Positions 26,134 through 63,858 of a stretch of 64,000 nucleotides of DNA are shown here, piece after piece. Origin of the DNA: an uncultured Ignavibacteria bacterium (GTDB lineage: Bacteria; Bacteroidota; Ignavibacteria; Ignavibacteriales; Ignavibacteriaceae). The notes under the pieces are model-generated. The model saw only the letters and a program-made list of their open reading frames with translations. It was not told the DNA's origin and made no database searches. A program made the translations under genes and the position numbers. The stretch is taken from contig CAVQEH010000002.1 of assembly GCA_963711455.1 (NCBI GenBank), positions 522,756-586,755 on the forward strand, given 5' to 3'. Within the stretch, counting starts at the first letter, position 1; each line of letters begins with the position of its first letter.

Positions 26134-27123
26134 TTAATTCTGTTTCTTAGATGTAAATCTGTCTACTTTGTGATGAATTGGTGGTACAGTCTTTAAGTAA
26201 TCATAGATTGCATTCAGATCTTTATCAGCCATACCTGCATACGAATTCCATGGCATTGGTGTATTGAATTCACCCGGAGTTATAGTAGCATCTTTGTCAG
26301 AATATTGTTCAAACTGGTTTAAAAAATCTTTTCTTGTCCATCTTCCGATCCCGGTTTCAATATCGGGAGTAATATTAACCGACCTGACTATCCCTCCTTT
26401 GATTCTGAATTCTGTTCCTCCGGCAAAGGTCAGCTCATCATCCAGCTTCCCTTCTTTCATAGGAGTATGACAGTTTTTACAGTCTGCAATAGTAACCAGG
26501 TATTTCCCGTATTCAACAGAGTTTGATTCATCTATCGAATTTATCGGATCGTACGATTTTGGTGGAAATGTTTTCACGATCAGGTTCATTGGAAAATTAA
26601 TTGAACTTTGAGGGACTTCGTTTACAATAGGTTGAAGCGTTCTTAAATAAGCGATTATAGAATAAAGATCTTCCAATTTAAGATTGTGGTATTCAAGGTA
26701 AGGCATCAGCGGAAAGAGTACCCTGTTATCCTTTGTAACACCGGTTGTTATCGCCCTTAGCACTTCACCATTTGTCCATTCACCAATTCCCGATGGCGTA
26801 ATGTTGCCGGCATATATAGTTCCAGGCAAACCATCTTCAAATTTTTCTCCGCCCATACCTTCAGTTCCGGGAATAACGGGTCCGGAAAACTTTGTCCAGT
26901 CCCTTGTAGAATGACAGGAAAGGCATACGGTGACGTGATTAACGAGGTAATTTCCCCTTTCAATTCGCTGAACTGTTGGGAAAATTTCAACTTTCGGTGC
27001 CTGAATAGTTTTAGGGTAGTTGTTATTGAAATAAATATATCCACCGATAAGAATTATAATGATAAAGAGAAAAAAATATTTTATAATCCGGTAGATTATT
27101 TTCTTACTCTTTTTTTTGCCCAT
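26134..27123 (-). CDS. Membrane-anchored dihaem cytochrome c
   Basis: N-terminal TM helix. Two CxxCH motifs (CLSCH, CKNCH). Class-I cytochrome c patterns NITPSGIGEWT and NITPDIETGIGRWT. Confidence 0.85.
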   Translation of the reverse strand: MGKKKSKKIIYRIIKYFFLFIIIILIGGYIYFNNNYPKTIQAPKVEIFPTVQRIERGNYLVNHVTVCLSCHSTRDWTKFSGPVIPGTEGMGGEKFEDGLPGTIYAGNITPSGIGEWTNGEVLRAITTGVTKDNRVLFPLMPYLEYHNLKLEDLYSIIAYLRTLQPIVNEVPQSSINFPMNLIVKTFPPKSYDPINSIDESNSVEYGKYLVTIADCKNCHTPMKEGKLDDELTFAGGTEFRIKGGIVRSVNITPDIETGIGRWTRKDFLNQFEQYSDKDATITPGEFNTPMPWNSYAGMADKDLNAIYDYLKTVPPIHHKVDRFTSKKQN

Positions 27124-27425: not shown

Positions 27426-28418
27426 CTATTTTTCAGCAGCTTCTTCTGGAGTAAATCGTTTTACAATATGATAAACGGGTTTAACGGTTCTCAGGTAATC
27501 ATAAATTGCACCTAAATCTTCTTTTGACATTCCGGCAAATAATGTCCAGGGCATTACAGTGTTAAAATCATGAGGTCCTACAGCAACATTTTTTGCAGAA
27601 TCGCTGTCGAAAGATTTAAATTGGTTAACGAAATTTTCTTTTGTCCAGTTACCAATACCGGTTTCGGGATCCGGAGTAATATTTGCCGTCCTGATCGTTC
27701 CCCAGGGGAGATGAAATTCCTCTCCGCCGGCAAGGTCCATTCCTGGCAGCGGTTCGCCCTTTTTCGTAGGAGTATGGCAGCCGCTGCAGCTGGCAATAGT
27801 TACGAGATATTTTCCATATTCAACTGAGTTATTTTTATCTTCTGGAGGAGCGGGAGAATATGTTTTTATAGGCATTGTTTTAACAAGCAGATTTAATGGA
27901 AAATCCAATTCACTGTCGGGTACTTTATTTTCTATAGGTTTAAGAGATTTTATGTATGCAACTATCGAATACAGGTCCTCTTGTGTAAGATGATTAAAAC
28001 TATAATATGGCATCAACGGGAACAATGCTTTACCATCCTTATTAACACCCTGCGTTATTGCTCTTATAAGTTCTCCGTCAGTCCAGTTGCCTATTTCAGC
28101 AGGAGTTATATTTTTACTATAAAGATTTCCCGGGAATCCTATTTCCTTTGAATATTTTTCACCGCCCATTCCTCTTGTATCAGCTTTAATCGGACCCGAA
28201 TATTTTGTCCAGTCTCTTCCAGAATGACATTCAATACAACCTGTAACGTGATTTGCAAGATATTCACCTCTTGCAATTCTTTCTGGGGTAATTTCCACTT
28301 TTATGTCCCTGGGTTTACTAACATCGGGATATTTTGAATTGAAGTAAATAAATCCTACTAGAATTACCAGAATTAAAACACCAAGAACAACACCTGAAAT
28401 TTTGAAAATTTTTTTCAT
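27426..28418 (-). CDS. Membrane-anchored dihaem cytochrome c (paralogue of 26134-27123)
   Basis: N-terminal TM helix. CIECH and CSGCH motifs. Long strings shared with the neighbour (NSVEYGKYLVTIA, LFPLMPY, ITPD.ETGIG.WT, AIYDYL). Confidence 0.85.
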   Translation of the reverse strand: MKKIFKISGVVLGVLILVILVGFIYFNSKYPDVSKPRDIKVEITPERIARGEYLANHVTGCIECHSGRDWTKYSGPIKADTRGMGGEKYSKEIGFPGNLYSKNITPAEIGNWTDGELIRAITQGVNKDGKALFPLMPYYSFNHLTQEDLYSIVAYIKSLKPIENKVPDSELDFPLNLLVKTMPIKTYSPAPPEDKNNSVEYGKYLVTIASCSGCHTPTKKGEPLPGMDLAGGEEFHLPWGTIRTANITPDPETGIGNWTKENFVNQFKSFDSDSAKNVAVGPHDFNTVMPWTLFAGMSKEDLGAIYDYLRTVKPVYHIVKRFTPEEAAEK

Positions 28419-28709
28419 AGTACTCCTAAATAAATTTTTATATAAAAATGCCGCCCGGTAAATGAAATAAAGAGGTATTTATTCCATTCAGGTATTATAT
28501 TTTAACTGGTTTTTGGGAATTCAGGTCAAAATCTACAATTGAAAAATGACTGTGTCAATAGTTTTTTTCTAAAAATCAACACCTCCATTTCCCACGGCCA
28601 TAAAACAGGAAAAATTTGCATTCATAATTCAACAATTTGGCAATTTAATTATTATCCATTTGTAGAATTTCAATTTTAGTTTTAATTTAGAAGCAATCAG
28701 GAGATTTAT

Positions 28710-51995: not shown

Positions 51996-53636
51996 TTAAG
52001 CGGCTTCTTTTGTTTTTGAACTTGTTGTCCTCATCTTTGTGTACATAACTGAGATTATAAGCAGAATAATACTGACTGCCAAAAATGAAATTACTTTATA
52101 AGTAATGTCGGATGAAGTTATTCCGAAAGCTGCTAAATAAAGGCTCGTTAGTATCAGTGTAGATACTGCCATCATACGGTATTTTTTATTATTAAGGAGT
52201 TTACTCATTAAGTAATAAAGCAGAGCCAGCCCTGCCCACGATAATCCCACAAAGCTTGAAGGCAATACCTGGTAGAGTACATAAGGTAAGATAAAGAAAG
52301 CCATAATCAGGTAAGCAAGCCTGATATAATTAGTTGTCAGTTCTAATCTTGTCTTTTGCCAGTTCAGAATTCTTGCACTTATTAAAGCTGCAAACCCGAA
52401 GCTTATTCCTTCAATGCCAATAACTTTTACGTTGATGAGGTATGAAAGCAGAATACCTCCAAAGATAAAAATGTTTGCCACTATTATAAATTTGGATCTG
52501 AACCATAAAGCAGTAGAGATAACTACTATACTTTGCCAGCATAGAAGTATAAAGAATGCGGGTTCATTATATGAAGCAATAATAGATGCGCTTAGTGCAG
52601 CGTACGCAAACATCGCATAAATAAATGAACCAAACCTGCTTTTTTCTTTTGTCCAGAATAAGATTGCAAGCGTCATTAAAATTGCGAAGGCACCTAAGTG
52701 AACGATTCCAAGATTATTAATTCCGCTCAGGATAGAAATTAAAAGAAACAACCCGTATCCCAATGAGGCATTCATAATTGTAATAAATAATTCATCCAGC
52801 TCCCGTTTTTTATCTTTGATTAGTAATAAACTTCCAATCCCGTAAATCAATAAGTATGCTAATAAAAAAATCAGGTTATACTGAAACCCGGTAGTTATCT
52901 TGAGGTTATATCCAAGTAACGGATTGTTCACGAACCAGAGACAATGAGCAAGGCAAGTGAAAATTATACCAAATACCATAAGGTTGGATGATTTATATTT
53001 TAATGAAAATTGCACGACTGAAAAACTTATTACGGCAAGCATTACGAACATTAACCATGGAACCTCAGTAACAAGTGAGGTCATAATAAAGAACAGTTCT
53101 GCAAGTGCAATTAAATATATCGACTGGCGTTTGAAAGAAATTCCTATGGTTAAAGCACTTACAATCAGCAGCAGGATTACAACAAAAAATCTGCTTGTAA
53201 CTATTGGTTCTGCACTGAAGAAATGAAGACGCAATGTAGTGAGATAAAGCAATGCTGCACCTCCGCCGATTAAAAAACCCGAAATATATTTAAATGATTT
53301 AAGCCAGATTTCGGGAATAACAATCAATGCAATGCTTAGCACAAATCCAATTGCAACAGGAAGCAGCGGGGGATAATTATCTAATGGCTGTGTCATCAGA
53401 AAAAACATACCAAGAAGAAATGCCAGTATTCCGATTTTTGCAAACCAGAATTCCCCGATCGTAAGCTCAAGTGAATCATCTTCTTCCTCCTTCTTTCGTG
53501 CCGGACCTGTTACCTCCTCTGTTTTTGGGTTTTCCCATTTCAGATTCAGTGCATTCTCAACTTCCGTTAATCTCCTTTCAATACGGGTCATCGTATTAAT
53601 GAGGTCTTCAATTAAAGGATTGGATACATCGTTCAT
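51996..53636 (-). CDS. Large polytopic membrane protein, DUF2339-like
   Basis: N-terminal coiled-coil/charged segment (TRIERRLTEVENALN...KKEEEDD) followed by more than 12 hydrophobic helices. The architecture resembles DUF2339. It lies 17 nt downstream of the multihaem cytochrome gene. Confidence 0.55.
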   Translation of the reverse strand: MNDVSNPLIEDLINTMTRIERRLTEVENALNLKWENPKTEEVTGPARKKEEEDDSLELTIGEFWFAKIGILAFLLGMFFLMTQPLDNYPPLLPVAIGFVLSIALIVIPEIWLKSFKYISGFLIGGGAALLYLTTLRLHFFSAEPIVTSRFFVVILLLIVSALTIGISFKRQSIYLIALAELFFIMTSLVTEVPWLMFVMLAVISFSVVQFSLKYKSSNLMVFGIIFTCLAHCLWFVNNPLLGYNLKITTGFQYNLIFLLAYLLIYGIGSLLLIKDKKRELDELFITIMNASLGYGLFLLISILSGINNLGIVHLGAFAILMTLAILFWTKEKSRFGSFIYAMFAYAALSASIIASYNEPAFFILLCWQSIVVISTALWFRSKFIIVANIFIFGGILLSYLINVKVIGIEGISFGFAALISARILNWQKTRLELTTNYIRLAYLIMAFFILPYVLYQVLPSSFVGLSWAGLALLYYLMSKLLNNKKYRMMAVSTLILTSLYLAAFGITSSDITYKVISFLAVSIILLIISVMYTKMRTTSSKTKEAA

Positions 53637-53653: not shown

Positions 53654-55138
53654 TTAATCCTTGGAAGGATTTTGTTTTTCTATTTTCCTGATGTATAAAA
53701 ACAGTACGAGTATCAGAAAACTTATTATTAACACCGATATTCCCAGGCCTACTCTTCTGAAGTAATATTCATGAATTGCCCCTCTTGCTTCTGCTATTAC
53801 ATCTTTTGAAGATGCAAATCCTTTATCGACAACTTCTTTAAATTTTTGTTCATTAAAAGAATGAAGAACTGTTCTTGATTGAAGTTTTGCCTGGTGTATA
53901 TTTCTTAATTCAAATTTTGCTTCTTCAACTTCCATCCCCTTTTGTTCGGCTTCGAAGATAAGGTTGTGAGCCAGTGTGTCCTGTTGCTCAAGGCTGTCAA
54001 GCCAGAATTTCATTTTAGAAGCAACTTTATAACCATTAACATTTTCTGATGATGAATGGCATTTGATACATACTGCACCCGAACTTATCCCAAGAAGACT
54101 ATCCTGGGCAGGAAGAATTTCGTGATGACCATGACACGTTTCACATTCGGGATAATTGTGTTCATCAAATGCTTTCTTGTGCGGACTGCCCGAGAACAAT
54201 TCGGCATTTAAAACATGGCAGGTTCCACAAACTTTTGAAATGGATGTTAACCCGGGTGGCATAGCACCATGATTACCATGACAACTATTGCAGACTGGAG
54301 CGCTTAAATCATTCTTTTCAAATAAAGCTATTCCGTGAGCACTCCTGGAATATTTTTCAAATTGATCTGTCGGTATTCCGTATTGCTTCATATACTCTTT
54401 ATTGCTATGACAGTTGGAACAGGTTTTGGGAATGTTGGTTGGGTATACAGAAGACTGAACATCTTTTGTTGAAAGAATGTTATGGCTTCCATGGCAGCTT
54501 ACACATTGTGCAGGTTTTGGATCTCCTTTTGCATTAAGAATACCATGTTCACTTGTACGGTATTTCTGCAATTGATCAATTGCTATTTCAGGATTGTAGG
54601 AACGCATAAACTTAGCATCACCATGACACTTGTTGCAGGTTTGCGGAATATTTGTAGGATAAACAGGAGACTTGGAATCTTTCACTGAAACAATTCCATG
54701 AGCATTATGACAGGTAATGCATTGAACAATTCTATCAGTTCCGTTTAGACTTAATTTTCCATGCACACTGTTTTTTAATAATTCCAATTGATTCGTTGGA
54801 AGTCTCTTGTTATAGTGTGAAATGAACGAAGAATCGGAATGGCACTTTGCACATATTTCAGAAATTTGGTTTCCCTTCGGAACCCCGATGAAACCTTTGT
54901 TTTTATTCATGGCTTCATCCATATCTTCACTATTATTGTCTCCGCCATGGCAATCAGAACATGATAACCCTGCAAGATGATGAATATCATTTTTAAATAA
55001 TTCCGCAGGTGTGCTTCCTAAATCAGAGTGGCAGGAGAAACATTGGTCCTGTTTTGCAGCATATACTTTTAAGTAACTAAATGTAAGAAAAAATAAAAAT
55101 GTTAAGCAGAATTTCGTTACAGTTTTCACGACAGCCAC
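53654..55138 (-). CDS. Undecahaem c-type cytochrome with a C-terminal membrane anchor
   Basis: Signal peptide. Eleven CxxCH motifs (CFSCH, CSDCH, CAKCH, CITCH, CNKCH, CVSCH, CSNCH, CNSCH, CGTCH, CETCH, CIKCH). C-terminal TM helix [20 protein letters not shown]. The start overlaps the cytochrome b stop by 13 nt. Confidence 0.9.
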
Positions 55139-56226
55139 CCGAGCGTTGTTAAGAGAATGATAAAGATTACGGCAAATAATCCCATATAATTAATCTTCAG
55201 GTTTCGTTCACCTCTTGAGCTTTTGCGATCCCAGAAAGGAACAAGCAGCCAGAGAATACCGGCTATACCGAAAAGAAGAATTCCAACAACTTCTCCTTCG
55301 AAGAAGAAGATATGAGAAGGGAAGTACTTTAAAGTCTGGAACATAAAGAGGAAATACCATTCGGGTTTGATCCCTGCAGGCGCGCTTCCGAAAAGATTTG
55401 CTTTCAACCCGAGTTCAGCAGGAAAGAAGACAGCGAGCACAGCTAAAAGGTTTAATACCAGTAACCATAAAAGAAGATCACGCAGAAAGAAGTTTGGAAA
55501 GAAAGGCATCTTCTTTAATGGTTTTTTTGATTTTTCTGTTTCAAGTGGTTCGCTCATTCCCTGTCTCTGGACAAGAATAAGATGTATTGCAAGGATCATT
55601 GTGAATATTCCTGGCAGAAGTGCTACGTGGAAGCCAAAAAATCTTGAAAGCGTTGCACCTGTTACATCACTGCCGCCTCTGAGGAAAATTTTGATTGGTT
55701 CTCCTACAAAAGGAATTGCACCGGCAATATCGGAACCTACTTTTGTTGCAAAGAAAGCAAGCTGATTCCATGGGAGAAGGTAACCGCTGAATCCGAAAAA
55801 TAATGCGAGGAAAAACATTATTACTCCTGTTAGCCAGGTTAACTCTCTCGGTTTGCGGTATGCTTTTTCAAAATAAACACTAAACATATGAATGAACAAT
55901 GAAAGTATAAAAAGATTTGCCGACCACGCGTGTATTGATCTTACAAGCCAGCCGAACTGTACTTTGGACATTATAAACTGAATGCTCTCGTATGCGAGAT
56001 CCGCACTTCCTTTATAATAAAAAAGGAGAAGTATTCCTGTAACAACCTGTATGATAAAAAAGAAAACAGAAACTCCTCCGAAATAATACCATAATGAATG
56101 TCTGTGAACGGGCACATACTTTTTACTAAAGAATTTAATAAGGTCTTCAAACTGTACCCGTTCGTCTGTCCATTTATAAATTTTTAAAAAGAGATTTTTC
56201 ATTTTTTCACTATGTATTTTTTGCAA
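55126..56226 (-). CDS. Cytochrome b (fused b6 + subunit IV-like) of a Rieske/cyt b complex
   Basis: Helix-B haem ligands are H-x13-H ([15 protein letters not shown]). Helix-D ligands are H-x14-H ([16 protein letters not shown]), which is the b6-type spacing. The Qo-site PEWY motif is present (KPEWYFLF). Confidence 0.92.
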
Positions 56227-56662
56227 TCATTAATTCGTCGCCCTTTATTATGGTTTTATATTTTGTAAGAGGTCTCGGCGGGGGACCGGAAATGTTGCGC
56301 CCCGTTAAATCGTATTTACCGTTATGACAGGCACACCAGATTACATTTTTATCCTTCAAATATTGCACGGTACAATCAAGGTGAGTACACCTTGCTGAAA
56401 GTGCAATAAAGTTATTCTTATCAGGAATAACTATTACCGGTTCATTTCCAAAGCGGATAATCTTAAAGTTCTCTTTTTTCAGATCTTCTATTTTCCCGGC
56501 ACTGACTACAGAGACTTCAACTTCTCTTTGTTTAGGAGGACGCAGAAAAGAAAAAACCGGATATAAAACGGAAGCAGAAAATGCAGTTACTCCGGTTATA
56601 CCAAGAATTTTCAGAAAGCTTCTCCGGTTTGTTTGTTTATTAACTAGATCAGATTTTTCCAT
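56210..56662 (-). CDS. Rieske [2Fe-2S] protein with a twin-arginine signal
   Basis: Tat motif [10 protein letters not shown]. Cluster-binding boxes are CTHLDC and CACHNG. The cytochrome b start overlaps its stop by 17 nt. Confidence 0.9.
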
Positions 56663-56683: not shown

Positions 56684-57052
56684 TTATTTATAAAATGAAA
56701 TTGTTGCTGATATTATCTCTTTAATAATTTTGTTGTCGATCGGTTTTTCGGTTAAATTAAATATGCCCTCCTGGTAAAGTATTCCGCCTTCGTTAGGATT
56801 AATTCTTTCATTTAAGATGATCAGCGGGATTCTTGGATTTATTCGCTTAATGATTTTTACCCAGTTATGACATGCAGAAAAACTTTCAGTGCAATCGCAA
56901 ATCACCATGTCGTAATCATTCTCCTGGAGATCAAGAATGAACCCTGCGAATTCTTTTTTCTTAACGAGTGCAATACCAATCTCCGAGCAAATTTCAAAAC
57001 ATTGTGATATTGTATCCTCATCGCTGCTAAGTATTATCCCTCTGAACTTCAT
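56684..57052 (-). CDS. Stand-alone receiver (CheY-like) domain protein with atypical conserved positions
   Basis: 122 aa. Beta1 is GIILSSDED rather than the usual xDD. A phospho-acceptor-like Asp is present in DMVICDC. A KP motif is present in LTEKPID. The position usually held by Thr/Ser reads LIILNE. Confidence 0.5.
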   Translation of the reverse strand: MKFRGIILSSDEDTISQCFEICSEIGIALVKKKEFAGFILDLQENDYDMVICDCTESFSACHNWVKIIKRINPRIPLIILNERINPNEGGILYQEGIFNLTEKPIDNKIIKEIISATISFYK

Positions 57053-57252
57053 AAGCGATACCTTCTATATCTTAAACCTGTGAAGTCATTTATTGTACCA
57101 GAAAAGTATTTATCGGCTTTATTTAGAATTTGAAAGGATTTGGCGGGAATATAATGAGTTGCACCTCCCAAATAAATTGAAGAATGAATGAAAAGTGTAT
57201 CCCTGATGTCACACTAATTGATAATTGTCAATTGTTAATTTATAATTACTAA

Positions 57253-58641
57253 TCACTTCCTGTATTGCTGAGGATCAAGATTATATTTTTTAAGTATGCG
57301 GTGAATATGTCTGCGGGTCATTCCTGCTTCTTCCGAAATTCGGGTAATATTTCCCTTATGCTTATTTAACAAAAAAAGAAAATACTTTTTTTCAACTTCC
57401 TCTACTGCTTTATTCCTTACCTGCGAAAGTGATGTCGTTTTAAAATGAGTTGAGGTCTGTCGTGAAGAAATGAATTGGGAAGGGAGTTCGTTAAGAGTTA
57501 TTTTTTCACCTTTGGAGAGTGCAACTGCACGTTCGACTATATTTTCCATTTCTCTTACATTCCCGGGCCAGTCGTATGCTTCAAATAATTCGATCACAGA
57601 ATCATCAAATCCTTTTATATTCTTTGGAGATGACTTAACCGTCTTAATAAGAAAGTGTTCTGCAAGAAGCCGGATATCTCCTTCACGCTCTCTTAATGGC
57701 GGAACCTGGATGTTAATGACGTTCAGCCTGTAATAGAAATCCTTACGCATTATTTCTCTTTCAAGCGCTTTATTAATATCCTGGTTTGTTGCAGATATTA
57801 ACCTTATATCAGCCTGTAGTAATTCGTTTCCGCCAAGTCGCCTCAACTGCTGGTCCTGCAAGCTTCTTAATAATTTTATCTGGAGATTAACAGGAAGTTC
57901 ACAAACCTCATCAAGAAAAAATGAGCCTCCGTTTGCATATTCAAGCAGTCCTATTTTTCTGTGAGTTGCTCCCGTAAAAGCACCTTTTTCATAACCGAAT
58001 AATTCTGCCTCAAAAAGATTCTCGGGGAAGGCTCCACAATTTACAGGAACAAAAGGCTTAAGCTTTCTTCTGCTGTGAGCATGAATACTGCGTGCTATCA
58101 ATTCTTTTCCTGTACCGCTTTCTCCTGTAATAAGAACATTAGCTTCAGAATCGGCAACGCTTTCAATCATTTCAAAAACTTTTCTTATAGGTTCGCTTTT
58201 ACCAATAATGTTATCAAACCTGTACCTGTCTTCAAGCTGCTTAAGTAAGTTGATTCTTTCTTTATAAAGGTTCCTTTGACGCAAACCTTTTTCTACTAGT
58301 ATTTTCAGGTTCTCGGTTTCAAATGGTTTTTCAATAAAATCAAAAGCTCCCGCTTTCATCGCTGCAACAGCTCTGTCTATTGTGCCGTAAGCTGAAAACA
58401 TAATTACCGGTGTGTTCGGTGCCAGTTTTTGTATTGCATCTAAAACCTGCATTCCATCGAAGTCTGGCATAAGCAGATCACAAAATACTAAATCAAATTC
58501 TTCATCCTGCATCAGACTAATTGCCTGTTTTCCATCAGGAACAGGATAAGGGCTATTACCCAATGCTGAAAGTATTTTCGCACAGCCTTTAAGCATATCA
58601 GGTTCATCATCTATAATCAGGATTTTGTGGTTTGCATTCAT
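57253..58641 (-). CDS. Sigma-54-dependent response regulator (NtrC family: receiver + AAA+ + Fis-type HTH)
   Basis: Receiver domain (ILIIDDEPD, FCDLLMPDFDG). Walker A GESGTGKE. GAFTGA loop. C-terminal HTH GNITRISEEAGMTRRHIHRILKKY. Confidence 0.92.
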   Translation of the reverse strand: MNANHKILIIDDEPDMLKGCAKILSALGNSPYPVPDGKQAISLMQDEEFDLVFCDLLMPDFDGMQVLDAIQKLAPNTPVIMFSAYGTIDRAVAAMKAGAFDFIEKPFETENLKILVEKGLRQRNLYKERINLLKQLEDRYRFDNIIGKSEPIRKVFEMIESVADSEANVLITGESGTGKELIARSIHAHSRRKLKPFVPVNCGAFPENLFEAELFGYEKGAFTGATHRKIGLLEYANGGSFFLDEVCELPVNLQIKLLRSLQDQQLRRLGGNELLQADIRLISATNQDINKALEREIMRKDFYYRLNVINIQVPPLREREGDIRLLAEHFLIKTVKSSPKNIKGFDDSVIELFEAYDWPGNVREMENIVERAVALSKGEKITLNELPSQFISSRQTSTHFKTTSLSQVRNKAVEEVEKKYFLFLLNKHKGNITRISEEAGMTRRHIHRILKKYNLDPQQYRK

Positions 58642-60401
58642 ATTTTAATTCCTTCGCTGCTGTAAGGCAGAGTAATTATAAACCGTGTAAATTTTCCTTC
58701 TTCGCTTTCAACATCAAGTTTACCTCGGTATCTCTGCACTATTGTTCTGGAAATTGATAAGCCCAATCCGGTTCCCTGCGCATCAAGCTTTGTAGAGAAG
58801 AAAGGATTAAAAATTTTGGATAGATTTTCCTTTTTTATTCCCATCCCATCGTCTTCAATTGAAATAAAGATACCATTAATTTTCTTTGATCCGAACGGAT
58901 TTCGATCAATATCATTTTTCCCGGTTTTTATTTTTATTTCTCCGCCATTTGATAATGCATCTATTGCATTGTTAAGTATATTTATAATTACTTGTTCCAT
59001 CTGCCTTTTATCTGCAAGAATCAATGGAAGTGAAGGAGCGTAAAATTTGGTCAAATGTATTTTATTTGCTTTTATACGATGTCCTATAAGATAAACACAT
59101 TCATCTATCAAATCTTCAATGCGAATAGCTTCAGGTTTGAAAGGCATTAAACGGGAATAAGTGAGAAGCGTTCTTGTATAATCGGCTATCCTTCGTGTCT
59201 GGTTCCTTATAATATTCAACTCTTCCCTGATACTATTATATTTCTCGTCTTCAAGCAGAAGCGCATCAGTGTGAGCGGCAATAATTCCTGCAGGCGTATT
59301 CAATTCGTGTGCTACGCTATCAACCAGTTCTCCTATTGAAGCAAGCTTTGAAGCCTGGTTTAACTGTTCCCTGTATTGATGTATTTCTTCGAGATTCCTG
59401 TTAACCTCTTCTGCTCTTATTCTTTTAAGATTAATAAAATATATTAATACGCCAAGAGTAAAAATCACTGCGAGAATAATTAATCCTAAAATAAAAAACA
59501 GTTGAAACCGGCTTCTTAACCCTGTCGTTACTTTAGGAAGCAATGTACTAATTGCAATAATCCATTTTTGGTTTTGAAGCTTCACAGGCACATAAGCCAT
59601 TATTTTATGAGGCTCATTTCCACGCACATAATATTCATCAACAGAAGAATGATTTGATGTAATCATCCTGTTTTGAGTATCGAAATTTACATGGCAGTTG
59701 TTGCATTCATTAGTTGTTCTAAGGATTGATTTAAAAAGCATTTCCTGATGTCTCGGGTGATAAATAAGTCTTCCTTCGCCATCGAGCACCCAGGCGAAAT
59801 CATCACTGCTTAATTTTAATGGCTTAATAAAACGTTTAATGAGAATATCAAAATCAACAAGATAACCAACGAAATAATTATTTTTACTTTTGTCTTTCTC
59901 ATTGAGTCTGATTATCATCAGGAAAGATTCAGGACTGTTCTTAACATTACTATAATCCGGCATTACATCAGAAAAAACATATTCCGAATCGGTTCTGTTT
60001 ATTGATGAAGTTAACCCGGGAATTTTTTTCAGCGACCAGTTTGGAAGGATGTTGCCTATGCTATAAATAACCAGTCCGGAAGAATCAGCCAAAAATATCG
60101 AACGTATAATAGTGCTGTCGTAGTTCTCTTTAAAGAATCTGAAATAAGCATAATTATTTTTTGCAGGGGTAGCAAGTACATCGGGATTATGAGTTAACAA
60201 TTTCATATCTCTAACGAGATGCTCTATAAAGAAATTGATTCCCTGTGCAACAGATTTAGCCATTTCAAGCTGCTGAAGCTGGTGATCATGTTTTGCATCT
60301 TCCAATGTACTGTTATAAATTCTGTTTACCAGAAAAAGGAATATAAAGACGAGCACAATTGTACCGATTGTGACAAAGTATTTTCTTGATTTTCTTTTCA
60401 T
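58638..60401 (-). CDS. Sensor histidine kinase with a periplasmic Cache/PAS-like domain carrying a CxxCH haem-c motif
   Basis: TM1 is about aa 8-29 and TM2 about aa 300-325, enclosing a roughly 270-aa periplasmic domain with C233-NN-C236-H237. Canonical H-box SVAHELNTPAG. HATPase boxes NNAIDA, DDGMGI and GTGLGLSI. There is a 4-nt overlap with the NtrC-type gene. Confidence 0.88.
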   Translation of the reverse strand: MKRKSRKYFVTIGTIVLVFIFLFLVNRIYNSTLEDAKHDHQLQQLEMAKSVAQGINFFIEHLVRDMKLLTHNPDVLATPAKNNYAYFRFFKENYDSTIIRSIFLADSSGLVIYSIGNILPNWSLKKIPGLTSSINRTDSEYVFSDVMPDYSNVKNSPESFLMIIRLNEKDKSKNNYFVGYLVDFDILIKRFIKPLKLSSDDFAWVLDGEGRLIYHPRHQEMLFKSILRTTNECNNCHVNFDTQNRMITSNHSSVDEYYVRGNEPHKIMAYVPVKLQNQKWIIAISTLLPKVTTGLRSRFQLFFILGLIILAVIFTLGVLIYFINLKRIRAEEVNRNLEEIHQYREQLNQASKLASIGELVDSVAHELNTPAGIIAAHTDALLLEDEKYNSIREELNIIRNQTRRIADYTRTLLTYSRLMPFKPEAIRIEDLIDECVYLIGHRIKANKIHLTKFYAPSLPLILADKRQMEQVIINILNNAIDALSNGGEIKIKTGKNDIDRNPFGSKKINGIFISIEDDGMGIKKENLSKIFNPFFSTKLDAQGTGLGLSISRTIVQRYRGKLDVESEEGKFTRFIITLPYSSEGIKI

Positions 60402-60553: not shown

Positions 60554-60566
60554 GTCACAGTGTGAC
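60554..60566. promoter_or_regulatory. Perfect 13-bp palindrome GTCACAgTGTGAC (candidate operator) in the divergent intergenic region
   Basis: Located at 60554-60566, with a third GTCACA half-site at 60574-60579. It lies between the kinase operon (minus strand) and the MacAB-like operon (plus strand). Confidence 0.3.
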
Positions 60567-60769
60567 ATAATTAGTCACAACAAAATTAATTGGAATATTT
60601 TTGAATATTAATTCTGATGCACATATATCAAAACCACTAATAATAATTTAAGGTTATTCAATATAATTTTGAAATCACTCACCAGAAATTAACCAAAAGT
60701 TAAAGAGAAATGTCTTTGCTTTATGGATTCAGTTAGTTAATTTTAAAGCTTAAAATTCCCGGGACAGAG

Positions 60770-61957
60770 ATGGAAACAAGTAAAGCCGATTTATCTTCGC
60801 TTAGGATAGATAGGTCTAATAATCATAATCCGAATTCATCGCGAAAAACTGTAATTATTATAGTTGTAATTATTGCTGCGGCGATTTTATTATTTCTTGG
60901 ATATACAATAGGTGGCTCATTATTTAATCCGGCAGAAGAAGTAAAACTTGTCACCGTCACACTTCAATCACCTTCACAGGCAAGTGCAGACCTAGCTGCA
61001 AGCGGCTATGTGGTTGCACAAAGAAAAGCAGCCGTTGCTTCGAAAGGAACAGGACGGTTGGAATACCTTGGAGTTGTTGAGGGAGATAAAGTTAAAAAAG
61101 ATCAGGTCCTTGGGAGATTAGAAGATAATGATATCAGGGCTCAGCTTGAAGAAGCAAACGCTAATCTGAAATTAGCTGAGGCAGATTTAAAAGATTCGGA
61201 AAATAATTACAACAGGCAGAAAGAATTATTAAAATCCGGAGCTACAACCCAAATGGATGTAGATGCTGCCGAAGCGCAATACAAAAGAGTGCTTGCTTCA
61301 ATTGATGTGGCAAAAGCAAATGTAAACTCTGCTCAAGTAGCTTTGGAAAATACTCTTATCCGTGCACCATTTGACGGAACAGTTTTAACTAAAAATGCTG
61401 AAGTAGGTGAAATTGTTGCACCGCTTGGTGCAAGTACGACTTCACGTGGTGCAATCGTCACTATGGCTGATATGAAATCACTTCAGGTGGAAGCAGATGT
61501 TTCGGAATCTTATATTGAACGAATTAAAACGGGACAGAGCTGCGAGATAATTCTTGATGCGTATCCACAAACTTCTTATGAAGGTTTTGTGGATAAAATT
61601 GTTCCGACTGCCGACAGGTCAAAAGCTACAGTACTTGTTAAAGTTGGTTTTAAAAAATATGATAGTAAAGTTCTTCCTGAAATGAGCGCTAAAGTTCTTT
61701 TTCTTTCAGAGCAGTTAACGGCTGAACAGAAAAATGAACCGTCCGTGCTTGTCGTACCTTTTACTTCTGTAGCTAAACGTGATGGACGCGATGTAGCATT
61801 TATGGTTAAAGATGATAAAGCTGTTGAAGTACCTGTTGTGAAAGGGAGAGACCTGGATTCCTTTATTGAAATTAAATCTGGACTTGCTGAAGGCGACAGA
61901 GTTATTGAGAAAGTGAACGATGAAATTAAAGATGGCGTAAAGATAAAAGTTCAGTAG
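60770..61957 (+). CDS. Efflux periplasmic adaptor (HlyD/MacA-like)
   Basis: N-terminal TM anchor. Coiled-coil hairpin (RAQLEEANANLKLAEADLKDSENNYNRQKELL). IRAPFDGTVLTKNAEVGEIV barrel motif. Confidence 0.85.
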   Translation: METSKADLSSLRIDRSNNHNPNSSRKTVIIIVVIIAAAILLFLGYTIGGSLFNPAEEVKLVTVTLQSPSQASADLAASGYVVAQRKAAVASKGTGRLEYLGVVEGDKVKKDQVLGRLEDNDIRAQLEEANANLKLAEADLKDSENNYNRQKELLKSGATTQMDVDAAEAQYKRVLASIDVAKANVNSAQVALENTLIRAPFDGTVLTKNAEVGEIVAPLGASTTSRGAIVTMADMKSLQVEADVSESYIERIKTGQSCEIILDAYPQTSYEGFVDKIVPTADRSKATVLVKVGFKKYDSKVLPEMSAKVLFLSEQLTAEQKNEPSVLVVPFTSVAKRDGRDVAFMVKDDKAVEVPVVKGRDLDSFIEIKSGLAEGDRVIEKVNDEIKDGVKIKVQ

Positions 61958-62017
61958 TGTGTCATCATTCCTTTTAAAAAGAATAATAGATAAATCCCAA
62001 ATTTTACCGGAGTTAAA

Positions 62018-62701
62018 ATGGCAGACATTATAAATGTTTTAAATGTTAACAAATCATACTGGAGGGACAGCCTGGAAATTCCTGTTCTCCATAATATTAC
62101 TTTGAATATTAAGGAAGGTGAATTTATTGCTTTGATGGGACCTTCCGGGTCGGGCAAAACTACTTTGCTTAATTTGTTGTCCGGGATTGACAGGCCTACT
62201 TCAGGCAGCATAACTGTTGCCGGTACTGATATTGCAAAGCTAAGTGAATCATCGCTTGCAAAGTGGCGTTCTGCAAACATTGGGTTTGTATTTCAGTTCT
62301 ATAATTTAATTCCGGTACTTACTGCTTATGAAAATGTCGAACTCCCGTTGTTGCTCACTAATTTGTCTAAGGCTGAAAGAAAAAAACATGTTCAGACTTC
62401 TTTAGAAATAGTTGGACTTGGAGACAGGATATATCACTATCCAAAACAATTATCCGGCGGACAGGAACAGAGAGTTGCAATTGCCCGGGCTATTGTTACC
62501 GATCCGGCGATACTAGTAGCCGATGAGCCGACCGGTGACCTTGACAGAAATTCTGCAGATGATATTTTAACTTTGATGGAAAGACTTAACAAGGAGTTTA
62601 ATAAAACTATTGTTATGGTTACTCACGATCCTCACGCAGCTTCCAAAGCTCACCTTATCCGCAATCTTGAAAAAGGCGATTTAATACCGGAGCTTGTATG
62701 A
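62018..62701 (+). CDS. ABC transporter ATP-binding protein (MacB/LolD-type)
   Basis: Walker [11 protein letters not shown]-loop, signature [14 protein letters not shown], Walker [13 protein letters not shown] and H-loop VTHD. Confidence 0.93.
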
Positions 62702-63858
62702 AAGTATTTAAACTTATTTTCAAAAACGCTCTTCGACACAAATTAAGATCATCTCTTACGATTCTCGGAATCGCTGTTGCAGTAATTGCTTTTGGTCTCC
62801 TTCGTACTGTTGTAACAGCATGGTATGTCGGAGTCGAAGCTTCTTCAGCCGACAGGCTTATAACAAGGCAGGCTGTTTCATTTATATTTCCGTTACCTTA
62901 TGCATACAGAGATAAAATAGCGGCAGTGCCCGGTGTTGATGAGGTTACTTTCGCAAACTGGTTCCAGGGAGTTTATATTGATAAAAATCAGTTCTTTGCA
63001 AGATTAGCTGTTGATGCAAATACTTTTTTAGATGTTTATCCGGAATTTGTTTTATCTCCTATGGAAATAACAAACTTCAAAAAAGAAAAAAACTCATGTG
63101 TAATCGGTGAAAAAATTGCAGAACAATATCACTTAAAGATAGGCGATATGATGGCGATTGAAGGAGATATTTATCCCGGCAGATGGGAATTTGTAATTCG
63201 CGGAATTTATAAACCCAAATATAAAACCACAGATGCAACACAGATGATGTTTCACTGGGATTATGTCGATGACAGGATGAGAGTTGAAATGCCCGGACGT
63301 GAGGGTGATGTTGGCTGGTATGTTATTAAAATTAATGATCCTTCCAGGTCCGCCGAAATATCTGAAAAGATTGATGCATTATTTAAAAATTCTCCTGCTG
63401 AAACTAAGACGGAAACCGAAAGAGCATTCCAGCAGGGTTTCCTGGCATCAACCAGCGCAATAATTACTTCAATGAATTTTCTTTCGTTTGTGATAATAGG
63501 AATTATCATGCTGGTTCTTGCGAACACAATGATAATGGCTGCAAGAGAAAGAACAAGGGAATATGCTGTGTTAAAAACTCTCGGATTTTCCGCTAAACAT
63601 CTGGTTGGTTTAATTATGGGTGAATCTCTTTTTATGGCTTTGCTTGGCGGAGGAATCGGACTGTTAATTACATTCCCTATGGTAAATAGTTTTGCTGCAG
63701 TTATTCCCAAAGGATTTTTCCCGGTATTTGAAGTTGAACCGATAACAATAATTCTTGCAATAAGTGCTGCAGTTATTATCGGGATTGTTTCTGCAATATT
63801 CCCTATACAAAGAGCATTAAGCACACGCATTGTTGATGGATTCAGGTTCGTGGGATAG
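62698..63858 (+). CDS. ABC transporter permease, FtsX/MacB-like
   Basis: N-terminal TM helix, a periplasmic MacB_PCD-like domain and C-terminal FtsX-type helices (REYAVLKTLGFSAKHL). There is a 4-nt overlap with the ATPase gene. Confidence 0.88.
   Translation: MKVFKLIFKNALRHKLRSSLTILGIAVAVIAFGLLRTVVTAWYVGVEASSADRLITRQAVSFIFPLPYAYRDKIAAVPGVDEVTFANWFQGVYIDKNQFFARLAVDANTFLDVYPEFVLSPMEITNFKKEKNSCVIGEKIAEQYHLKIGDMMAIEGDIYPGRWEFVIRGIYKPKYKTTDATQMMFHWDYVDDRMRVEMPGREGDVGWYVIKINDPSRSAEISEKIDALFKNSPAETKTETERAFQQGFLASTSAIITSMNFLSFVIIGIIMLVLANTMIMAARERTREYAVLKTLGFSAKHLVGLIMGESLFMALLGGGIGLLITFPMVNSFAAVIPKGFFPVFEVEPITIILAISAAVIIGIVSAIFPIQRALSTRIVDGFRFVG

Follow-up and report, generated by a model that had tools for sequence, protein, structure and literature searches.

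A candidate haem c-binding double-Cache histidine kinase beside a Rieske/cytochrome b operon in an uncultured Ignavibacteria bacterium

The DNA analysed here is a stretch of 64,000 nucleotides (nt) from an uncultured Ignavibacteria bacterium (assembly GCA_963711455.1, contig CAVQEH010000002.1, positions 522,756 to 586,755), hereafter the window. Its minus strand, on which all features described below lie unless stated otherwise, carries a gene for a sensor histidine kinase of 587 residues at 58638..60401. The periplasmic sensor domain of this kinase is modelled as a double-Cache (dCache) fold and holds a single C-x2-C-H (CxxCH) motif, which, judging from its conservation, very probably binds haem c. 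The best overall explanation, held with moderate confidence, is a haem-c dCache kinase that responds to a redox signal and controls the adjacent respiratory operon through a regulator of the NtrC type. Control of that operon by the kinase-regulator system can itself be proposed with good confidence, and the identity of the signal with far less confidence than either haem binding or operon control.

Among bacterial extracellular sensors, Cache domains are the largest family, and they were regarded as cofactor-free until a 2026 preprint described a single-module family that carries haem c (PMC12889525). The kinase is a testable extension of this very recent discovery of haem-c Cache sensors and is not categorically new. 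If the proposal is true, sensor domains have captured a cytochrome motif more than once, and a haem site occurs on the dCache scaffold, which is far commoner than the single-module one. The membrane-proximal module, whose role is usually unclear, would gain a function, and about a thousand unnamed 'PAS/Cache/ATP-binding' proteins of anaerobic and sediment bacteria would gain a testable one. The poorly understood Rieske/cytochrome b complexes that use multihaem cytochromes would acquire a candidate regulator, and annotation a simple sequence signature.

The CxxCH motif and the sensor domain

The kinase consists of a periplasmic sensor held between two transmembrane helices (TM1 and TM2) and a cytoplasmic catalytic core. 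TM1 (residues 8-29, 60315..60380), with its N-terminus in the cytoplasm, is indicated by Kyte-Doolittle hydropathy, by the N-terminal sequence MKRKSRK and by a helix in the AlphaFold2 model. TM2 (residues 299-325, 59427..59507) is indicated by hydropathy and falls within a modelled helix (residues 288-334) that continues unbroken from the last strand of the proximal Cache module into the kinase. Because both the N-terminus and the segment following TM2 (KRIRAEE) are positively charged, residues 30-298 are placed in the periplasm; the CxxCH motif lies, by the positive-inside rule, on the side of the membrane that c-type cytochromes require. The HisKA dimerisation and phosphoacceptor domain (PF00512, residues 357-418, 59148..59333, containing His365) scores 30.7 bits over a cut-off of 26.9, and the catalytic HATPase_c domain (PF02518, residues 464-580, 58662..59012, E 2.9e-24) scores 86.1 bits over a cut-off of 26.4. 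The translation contains the H-box SVAHELNTP(AG) followed by NNAIDA, DDGMGI, FNPFFSTK and GTGLGLS, and the protein is a class I (HisKA) histidine kinase with the H-box His and the N, G1, F and G2 boxes. It has no HAMP domain. In the sensor, Pfam finds dCache_1 (PF02743, residues 43-222, E 1.6e-8) at 34.8 bits, under the gathering score of 45. This layout agrees with the first-pass annotation of the stretch, which had described a canonical HisKA/HATPase kinase with the H-box SVAHELNTPAG, two transmembrane helices bracketing an extracytoplasmic domain of about 270 residues, and a 4-nt overlap with the gene of an NtrC-type regulator. Pfam confirms the first of these, hydropathy and the positive-inside rule the second, and the overlap, formed by the kinase stop and the regulator start, lies at 58638-58641.

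The motif itself, C233-N-N-C236-H237, occupies 59691..59705 in the membrane-proximal half of the sensor, and the translation places this single CNNCH exactly where the annotation had put it. The kinase has only three cysteines, two of them within the motif, and its composition gives a chance expectation for CxxCH of 3.6e-4. Across all six frames of the window, only four open reading frames (ORFs) of at least 80 residues bear a CxxCH. The three besides the kinase are genuine cytochromes c, namely an 11-haem protein and two dihaem Cytochrom_C proteins. A chance origin of the motif is ruled out by composition together with the conservation described next. The two dihaem proteins are encoded by neighbouring ORFs at 26137-27123 (-) and 27429-28478 (-), each with two CxxCH motifs and a Pfam Cytochrom_C match, one of them also matching Cytochrome_CBB3.

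Conservation was followed at three depths. A word-indexed search with the sensor domain returned 16 relatives, many of them truncated gene calls; the 12 whose sequence spans the motif, the most distant at 35% identity, all keep CxxCH, with free variation at its two middle residues. A locus scan with one genome per species gave 57 loci, and every one that covers the region (57/57) keeps M-x11-C-x2-C-H-x2-F; the dipeptide that separates the cysteines takes 33 different forms. At the greatest depth, 1.84 billion representatives at 50% identity were searched exhaustively with a profile, and this yielded 1393 matches at E<=1e-3, of which 495 reach E<=1e-10; the residue frequencies that follow come from the alignment rows of the best 150 of the 1393. 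C233 is kept in 155/157 rows, C236 in 154/157 and H237 in 153/156, so each of the three stands at about 98%, and F240 is present in 146 rows (about 93% of those with a residue there). The first-pass annotation had proposed an orthologue alignment as a check on CxxCH and on a plausible distal Met or His ligand, and the alignment supports both, M221 being conserved in 150/156 rows (96%) and H218 in 139/157 (89%). These candidate distal ligands belong to the segment H215-P-R-H218-Q-E-M221 (59739..59759; H-P-E-M in the family), and the spacing from M221 to C233 is fixed, with no insertion or deletion (M-x11-C). Ten positions are at least 85% conserved across the family, and nine of them lie in the proximal module: W204, G210, H218, M221, C233, C236, H237, F240 and W280. 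The distal module contains none and is the least conserved part of the sensor, with 1.10 bits of information per column against 1.99 in the proximal module. The family can be described by the signature W-x-[LIVM]-D-x2-G-x-L-[LI]-[YF]-[HQ]-x2-H-P-E-M-x11-C-x2-C-H-x-[ST]-F.

An AlphaFold2 model of residues 1-335, built from an alignment of nine sequences, reaches a predicted local distance difference test (pLDDT) score of 85.3 and a predicted template modelling (pTM) score of 0.78. In this model the periplasmic sensor is a dCache fold, with a long N-terminal helix (residues 2-70) and two alpha/beta modules between the two transmembrane helices. The weakly conserved membrane-distal module spans about residues 95-195 (59817..60119; strands within 99-183). 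The membrane-proximal module, delimited at about residues 196-290 (59532..59816) by the modelled strands, by conservation and by alignment to the Campylobacter receptor Tlp1, holds the predicted haem site. Its strands comprise residues 201-207, 211-214, 253-257, 266-275 and 278-287, and an insert at 215-252 contains the H-P-R-H-Q-E-M segment, a short helix (231-234) bearing CxxCH and a further helix (241-248). CxxCH is placed between strands 2 and 3, with three strands coming after it. Burial of the motif in a beta-sheet, named in the first-pass annotation as the structural outcome that would speak against haem, is not what the model predicts, and the motif instead sits in a helical and loop insert. 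The motif seems to occupy the usual place of the ligand pocket in Cache and PAS modules, and the drop of pLDDT to 61-73 near the motif is as expected of a model built without a cofactor.

Structural comparison points to the same fold. The top 50 Foldseek matches in the PDB are all dCache ligand-binding domains (E ~1e-11 to 1e-7), among them vpHK1S-Z8, TlpA, TlpC, PctA/B/C and Tlp1, and no haem protein occurs among these 50. The best PDB match of the proximal-module profile is the proximal module of Tlp1 (4wy9; E 0.14, not significant), and this alignment has a 4-residue gap precisely at CxxCH. Four proximal modules searched alone against Pfam match only the C-terminal parts of dCache_1, dCache_2 and Cache_3-Cache_2. 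The sensor sequence compared with PDB chains gave a sole match, 3g0k at E 0.04, which was rejected as spurious.

Relation to known sensors and the wider family

The closest functional precedent is sCache_haem, the DUF3365/Tll0287-like family PF11845, whose members include GSU0582, GSU0935, Tll0287 and the P. azotoformans CHH receptor (Deshpande et al. 2026, PMC12889525; 10.64898/2026.05.25.727664). It was described in that preprint as the first known Cache domain with a covalent cofactor; CxxCH is near-universal in it, and the haem c is covalently bound (PMC12889525). A single Cache module makes up the domain, and the helix that bears CxxCH is inserted in the expanded beta3-beta4 loop, before the last strand (PMC12889525, Fig. 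1). Signalling members bind nitric oxide (NO) tightly without forming a stable oxy-complex, and stand-alone members act as redox proteins (PMC12889525). The kinase sensor resembles this family in being a periplasmic domain of the Cache superfamily whose only CxxCH, strictly conserved, sits on a short inserted helix, in having haem c (covalently bound in sCache_haem, presumed in the kinase) and in being fused to histidine kinases among other signalling outputs.

The two families differ in three of the four features that define sCache_haem, namely profile, module number and insertion point, and membership of PF11845 is ruled out. No PF11845 match is found for the whole protein at E<=0.01 or for four proximal modules at E<=10. 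For 71 family members scanned at E<=1e-3, 35 families matched, and the 25 listed do not include PF11845. The PDB entries 3B42, 3B47 and 5B82 are likewise absent from the sequence matches and from the 50 Foldseek matches listed. sCache_haem has one module, whereas the kinase sensor has two in the AlphaFold2 model and all its listed Foldseek matches are dCache domains; CxxCH is inserted between beta3 and beta4 in the former and between beta2 and beta3 of the proximal module in the latter. The partner motif H-P-E-M-x11-CxxCH-x-S-F also sets the kinase sensor apart. The shared feature is the near-universal CxxCH (about 98% of the 150 representatives, 57/57 loci). The first-pass annotation had pointed to Geobacter sensors as precedent, and this stands in so far as haem-c Cache sensors do exist; the Geobacter proteins GSU0582 and GSU0935 themselves belong to the different, single-module PF11845 family. 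We conclude that the kinase sensor works like sCache_haem without belonging to it, and it looks like a second, independent acquisition of haem c by a Cache sensor, on a dCache scaffold.

The haem-less dCache_1 domains (vpHK1S-Z8 3LIE/3LID, PctA/B/C, TlpA/TlpC and Tlp1 4WY9) share the fold (Foldseek E ~1e-11), but they lack CxxCH and bind small ligands non-covalently, mostly in the distal module. For the kinase core and the regulator, NCBIfam places the AtoS/AtoC, ZraS/ZraR and NtrB/NtrC systems nearest. The layout of an upstream palindrome and a -24/-12-like element, described below, is common to systems of these types, while the sensor domain of AtoS, ZraS and NtrB is unrelated and the scores fall far under the equivalog cut-offs (AtoS: 195 against 646 bits). 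Functional analogues are RegB/RegA-PrrB/PrrA and ArcB/ArcA, whose kinases report the state of the electron-transport chain and regulate cytochrome complexes. RegB/PrrB and ArcB sense quinones or use cytoplasmic or membrane cysteines, not a periplasmic covalent haem, and we know of no homology between their sensors and that of the kinase.

The wider family consists mostly of kinases, since 55 of 71 sampled members match HATPase_c and 46 match HisKA; 64 match dCache_1 (E<1e-3, best 2.5e-25). Many carry extra PAS, GAF or REC domains, and lengths run from about 550 to 1600 residues. In the source databases they are called 'ATP-binding protein', 'PAS domain S-box protein' or 'cache domain-containing protein'; neither Pfam nor NCBIfam has a model that recognises the haem site or sensor of this family. 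Taxonomy was taken from 30 cluster look-ups, some of which carry an organism name, and the named members come from metagenome-assembled genomes (MAGs) of Ignavibacteria, Bacteroidota, Acidobacteriota/Terriglobia, Nitrospirota and Schekmanbacteria, with one MAG labelled archaeal. The 57 genome loci are mostly from Ignavibacteria MAGs, the others from Calditrichota, Neomarinimicrobiota, Lentisphaeria, Acidobacteriota and further MAGs. In several loci (L001/L015, L014, L017 and L030) the kinase homologue is split over two frames (e.g. P0005 + P0013; P0002 + next gene). These splits are probably assembly frameshifts, which would account for the many truncated database proteins.

No description of a double-Cache domain with haem c, or of a kinase-Rieske linkage, was found in the open-access literature. 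The fuller proposal is that the family forms a second, independently evolved haem-c Cache class ('dCache_haem') and that in its Ignavibacteria clade it serves as a periplasmic His/Met-haem redox sensor, which links the state of the extracytoplasmic electron-transfer chain to sigma-54-dependent expression of a quinol-oxidising complex of Rieske protein, cytochrome b and multihaem cytochrome. We give this combined proposal even chances. Clustered at 50% identity, the candidate class would number at least ~500 and up to ~1400 clusters, with members in Ignavibacteria, Bacteroidota, Acidobacteriota, Nitrospirota, Neomarinimicrobiota, Lentisphaeria and other groups.

The adjacent respiratory operon and the signal

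The regulator gene (57253..58641) encodes REC, AAA+ and HTH_8 domains (PF00072, PF00158 Sigma54_activat at 226 bits, and PF02954) and shows GAFTGA in its translation. The protein is an NtrC-family bacterial enhancer-binding protein with REC, a GAFTGA-containing AAA+ domain and a Fis-type HTH; its NCBIfam matches are AtoC/NtrC/ZraR-like, all under the equivalog cut-offs. Downstream follow a small single-domain receiver-like protein (122 residues, 56684..57052, weak Pfam REC match), a Rieske [2Fe-2S] subunit (56210..56662, PF00355), a cytochrome b of the fused b6/subunit IV type (55126..56226, PF00033 and PF00032), a membrane-anchored cytochrome c with exactly 11 CxxCH motifs and matches to multihaem Pfam families (53654..55138), and a polytopic DUF2339 membrane protein of 546 residues (51996..53636), identified by Pfam and synteny. 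The first-pass annotation had placed the kinase and regulator directly upstream of the Rieske/cytochrome b/11-haem locus and had suggested a functional link. Pfam and the count of 11 CxxCH motifs bear out the arrangement, with the small receiver ORF in between, and the suggested link is supported by synteny across phyla and by the palindrome and -24/-12-like element described below.

Synteny was examined by phmmer, with the window proteins against the six-frame ORFs of 59 loci. In nearly all loci with enough flank, the kinase and NtrC-type regulator genes are followed by the small receiver (not always present), Rieske, cytochrome b, multihaem cytochrome and DUF2339 genes, or DUF2339 comes first. 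The arrangement is found in Ignavibacteria, Neomarinimicrobiota, Lentisphaeria and Acidobacteriota MAGs and persists to sensor identities as low as 32%. Five loci (L002, L022, L027, L031 and L034) are exceptions in which the same kinase/regulator module, with or without the small receiver, stands by other respiratory sets, instead of or besides Rieske/cytochrome b. These sets include 5- and 8-haem cytochromes, an ORF of molybdopterin-oxidoreductase size (690-780 residues), a 4Fe-4S protein and an NrfD-like membrane protein. The single locus from Calditrichota belongs to the exceptions.

Two elements precede the operon. A putative activator-binding palindrome, GTGTGACATCAGGGATACAC (57195..57214), is kept just past the regulator stop codon in close loci, and a sigma-54-like -24/-12 element, TGGTACAATAAATGA (57086..57100), precedes the ATG at 57052 by about 35 nt. 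The -24/-12-like element becomes visible only by comparison of loci. After the regulator gene, TGG[CT]A[CT]-N6-TG[CA] occurs in 23/53 loci against 34/5038 background windows (about 64-fold), and a looser TGGYAY occurs in this intergenic region in 47/53 loci against 25% of background windows. The pattern GTGNGA-N6-14-TYNCAC is present in 18/53 loci against 0.8% of background windows (about 40-fold), some 100-130 bp upstream of the -24/-12-like element; GTGTGACATCAGGGATACAC is a clade variant outside this strict pattern. The sequences of distant loci (TGGCAC-N5-TTGA, TGGTAC-N5-YTGC) are better fits to sigma-54. Upstream of the kinase gene, about 155 nt from its start, lies a further palindrome, GTGAC-TAATTAT-GTCAC with a third GTGAC half-site (60554..60578), and alignment of upstream regions finds it strongly conserved in 14 close loci as TGTGAC-N6-ATGTCACAGTATGAC. 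Because this related palindrome is conserved there, autoregulation is suggested, and the element may be a site for the NtrC-type regulator.

In the mechanism proposed, the cytochrome c maturation system of the host would attach haem through Cys233 and Cys236, and His237 would be the proximal ligand. A scan of the 64-kb window for Trp-rich motifs detected no Ccm or Ccs genes; we infer that the host has such a system because three other c-type cytochromes are encoded in the window. The sixth ligand would come from the H-P-E-M segment, with Met221 as the candidate and His218 as a less likely one. Oxidation of the haem, or a change in its coordination as the Met ligand goes on or off, would alter the proximal module. 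The redox poise of the electron-transfer chain in the periplasm is favoured as the signal, because the candidate sixth ligand hardly varies and because the system would control electron-transfer complexes, not NO- or sulfide-specific enzymes. From the last strand of the proximal module, with its conserved W280, the change would travel through TM2 to the HisKA/HATPase core and alter autophosphorylation of His365; as this strand runs into TM2 and no HAMP intervenes, it would be passed on directly. The phosphoryl group would then move to the co-transcribed NtrC-type activator, and possibly also to the small receiver. The activator would bind the putative palindrome at 57195-57214 and drive a sigma-54-dependent operon of small receiver, Rieske, cytochrome b, 11-haem cytochrome and DUF2339 genes.

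Several observations weigh against parts of this mechanism. The promoter and palindrome patterns were shaped after the sequences had been seen. The -12 element in the window is degenerate, with TGA in place of TGC, and TGGTAYAAT in the clade of the window fits an extended -10 sigma-70 promoter just as well. A window scan for the canonical TGGCAC-N5-TTGCW with up to 2 mismatches gave no enrichment and no match in the relevant intergenic region. All family members come from MAGs. As to the signal, a small haem ligand (NO, CO, O2, sulfide or nitrite) that displaces Met221 could take the place of chain redox within the same haem-bearing architecture. A ligand is a possible signal because in sCache_haem, the one haem-c Cache family that has been characterised, the signalling proteins bind NO and form no stable oxy-complex (PMC12889525); a conserved but displaceable Met is also compatible with ligand sensing. 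On the other side, the conserved target operon encodes a quinol-oxidising Rieske/cytochrome b complex together with a multihaem cytochrome, the loci show no consistent link to an enzyme specific for NO, nitrite or sulfide, and the Met, being almost invariant, points to six-coordinate haem of the kind found in electron-transfer cytochromes. None of these counter-arguments is decisive, and ligand sensing, though judged the less likely of the two, is a serious competitor.

The site could also function without haem, either as a periplasmic thiol/disulfide switch formed by the Cys pair or as a metal site (Zn, Cu or Fe), sensed or structural, formed by C233, C236, H237, H218 and M221. Two conserved Cys, two His and one Met could indeed ligate a metal, and the profile of the segment weakly matches C2H2 zinc fingers (E 0.35-1.4, not significant). 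A disulfide switch or zinc finger, however, has no need of an adjacent His, and the fixed C-x2-C-H spacing is the signature of haem c. The motif is moreover periplasmic, the organisms and loci are rich in c-type cytochromes, and the other CxxCH motifs of the window occur only in cytochromes. Because about 98% of rows retain the His that follows the second Cys, a site without haem is improbable. Still less probable is an arrangement in which the true signal acts at the distal module and the haem is structural or modulatory, or in which the targets of the kinase lie elsewhere and its neighbourhood is coincidental. Most dCache receptors that have been characterised take up their ligands in the distal module (PMC9303924), and the distal module of the kinase is present and folds well in the AlphaFold2 model. 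Its low information content and the lack of any residue at 85% conservation speak against a signal there, and synteny with the respiratory module across phyla, even between distant sensors, speaks against coincidence. Redox sensing through haem c, with control of the adjacent operon, is retained as the preferred explanation.

Further components of the locus

The small receiver-like protein directly follows the regulator gene in 25 loci and keeps D52, a candidate phospho-acceptor, together with K102-P. Because it stays with the kinase and regulator where the downstream operon differs, it probably makes up a third part of the signalling module. The DUF2339 protein is syntenic with the Rieske/cytochrome b/multihaem genes in about 40 loci across phyla, before or after them, and may be an unrecognised subunit or assembly factor of the Rieske/cytochrome b complex. 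NCBIfam has no model for either protein. The cytochrome b scores 215 bits against the NCBIfam model cytb_ExtP (b-type cytochrome, selenite/tellurite reduction operon), under its cut-off of 290, which hints at a relation between the Rieske/cytochrome b/multihaem complex and Ext-type extracellular electron-transfer clusters. Divergent from the kinase gene, on the plus strand (60770-63858), lies a MacAB-like efflux set composed of an HlyD-type membrane-fusion protein, an ABC ATPase and a MacB/FtsX permease.

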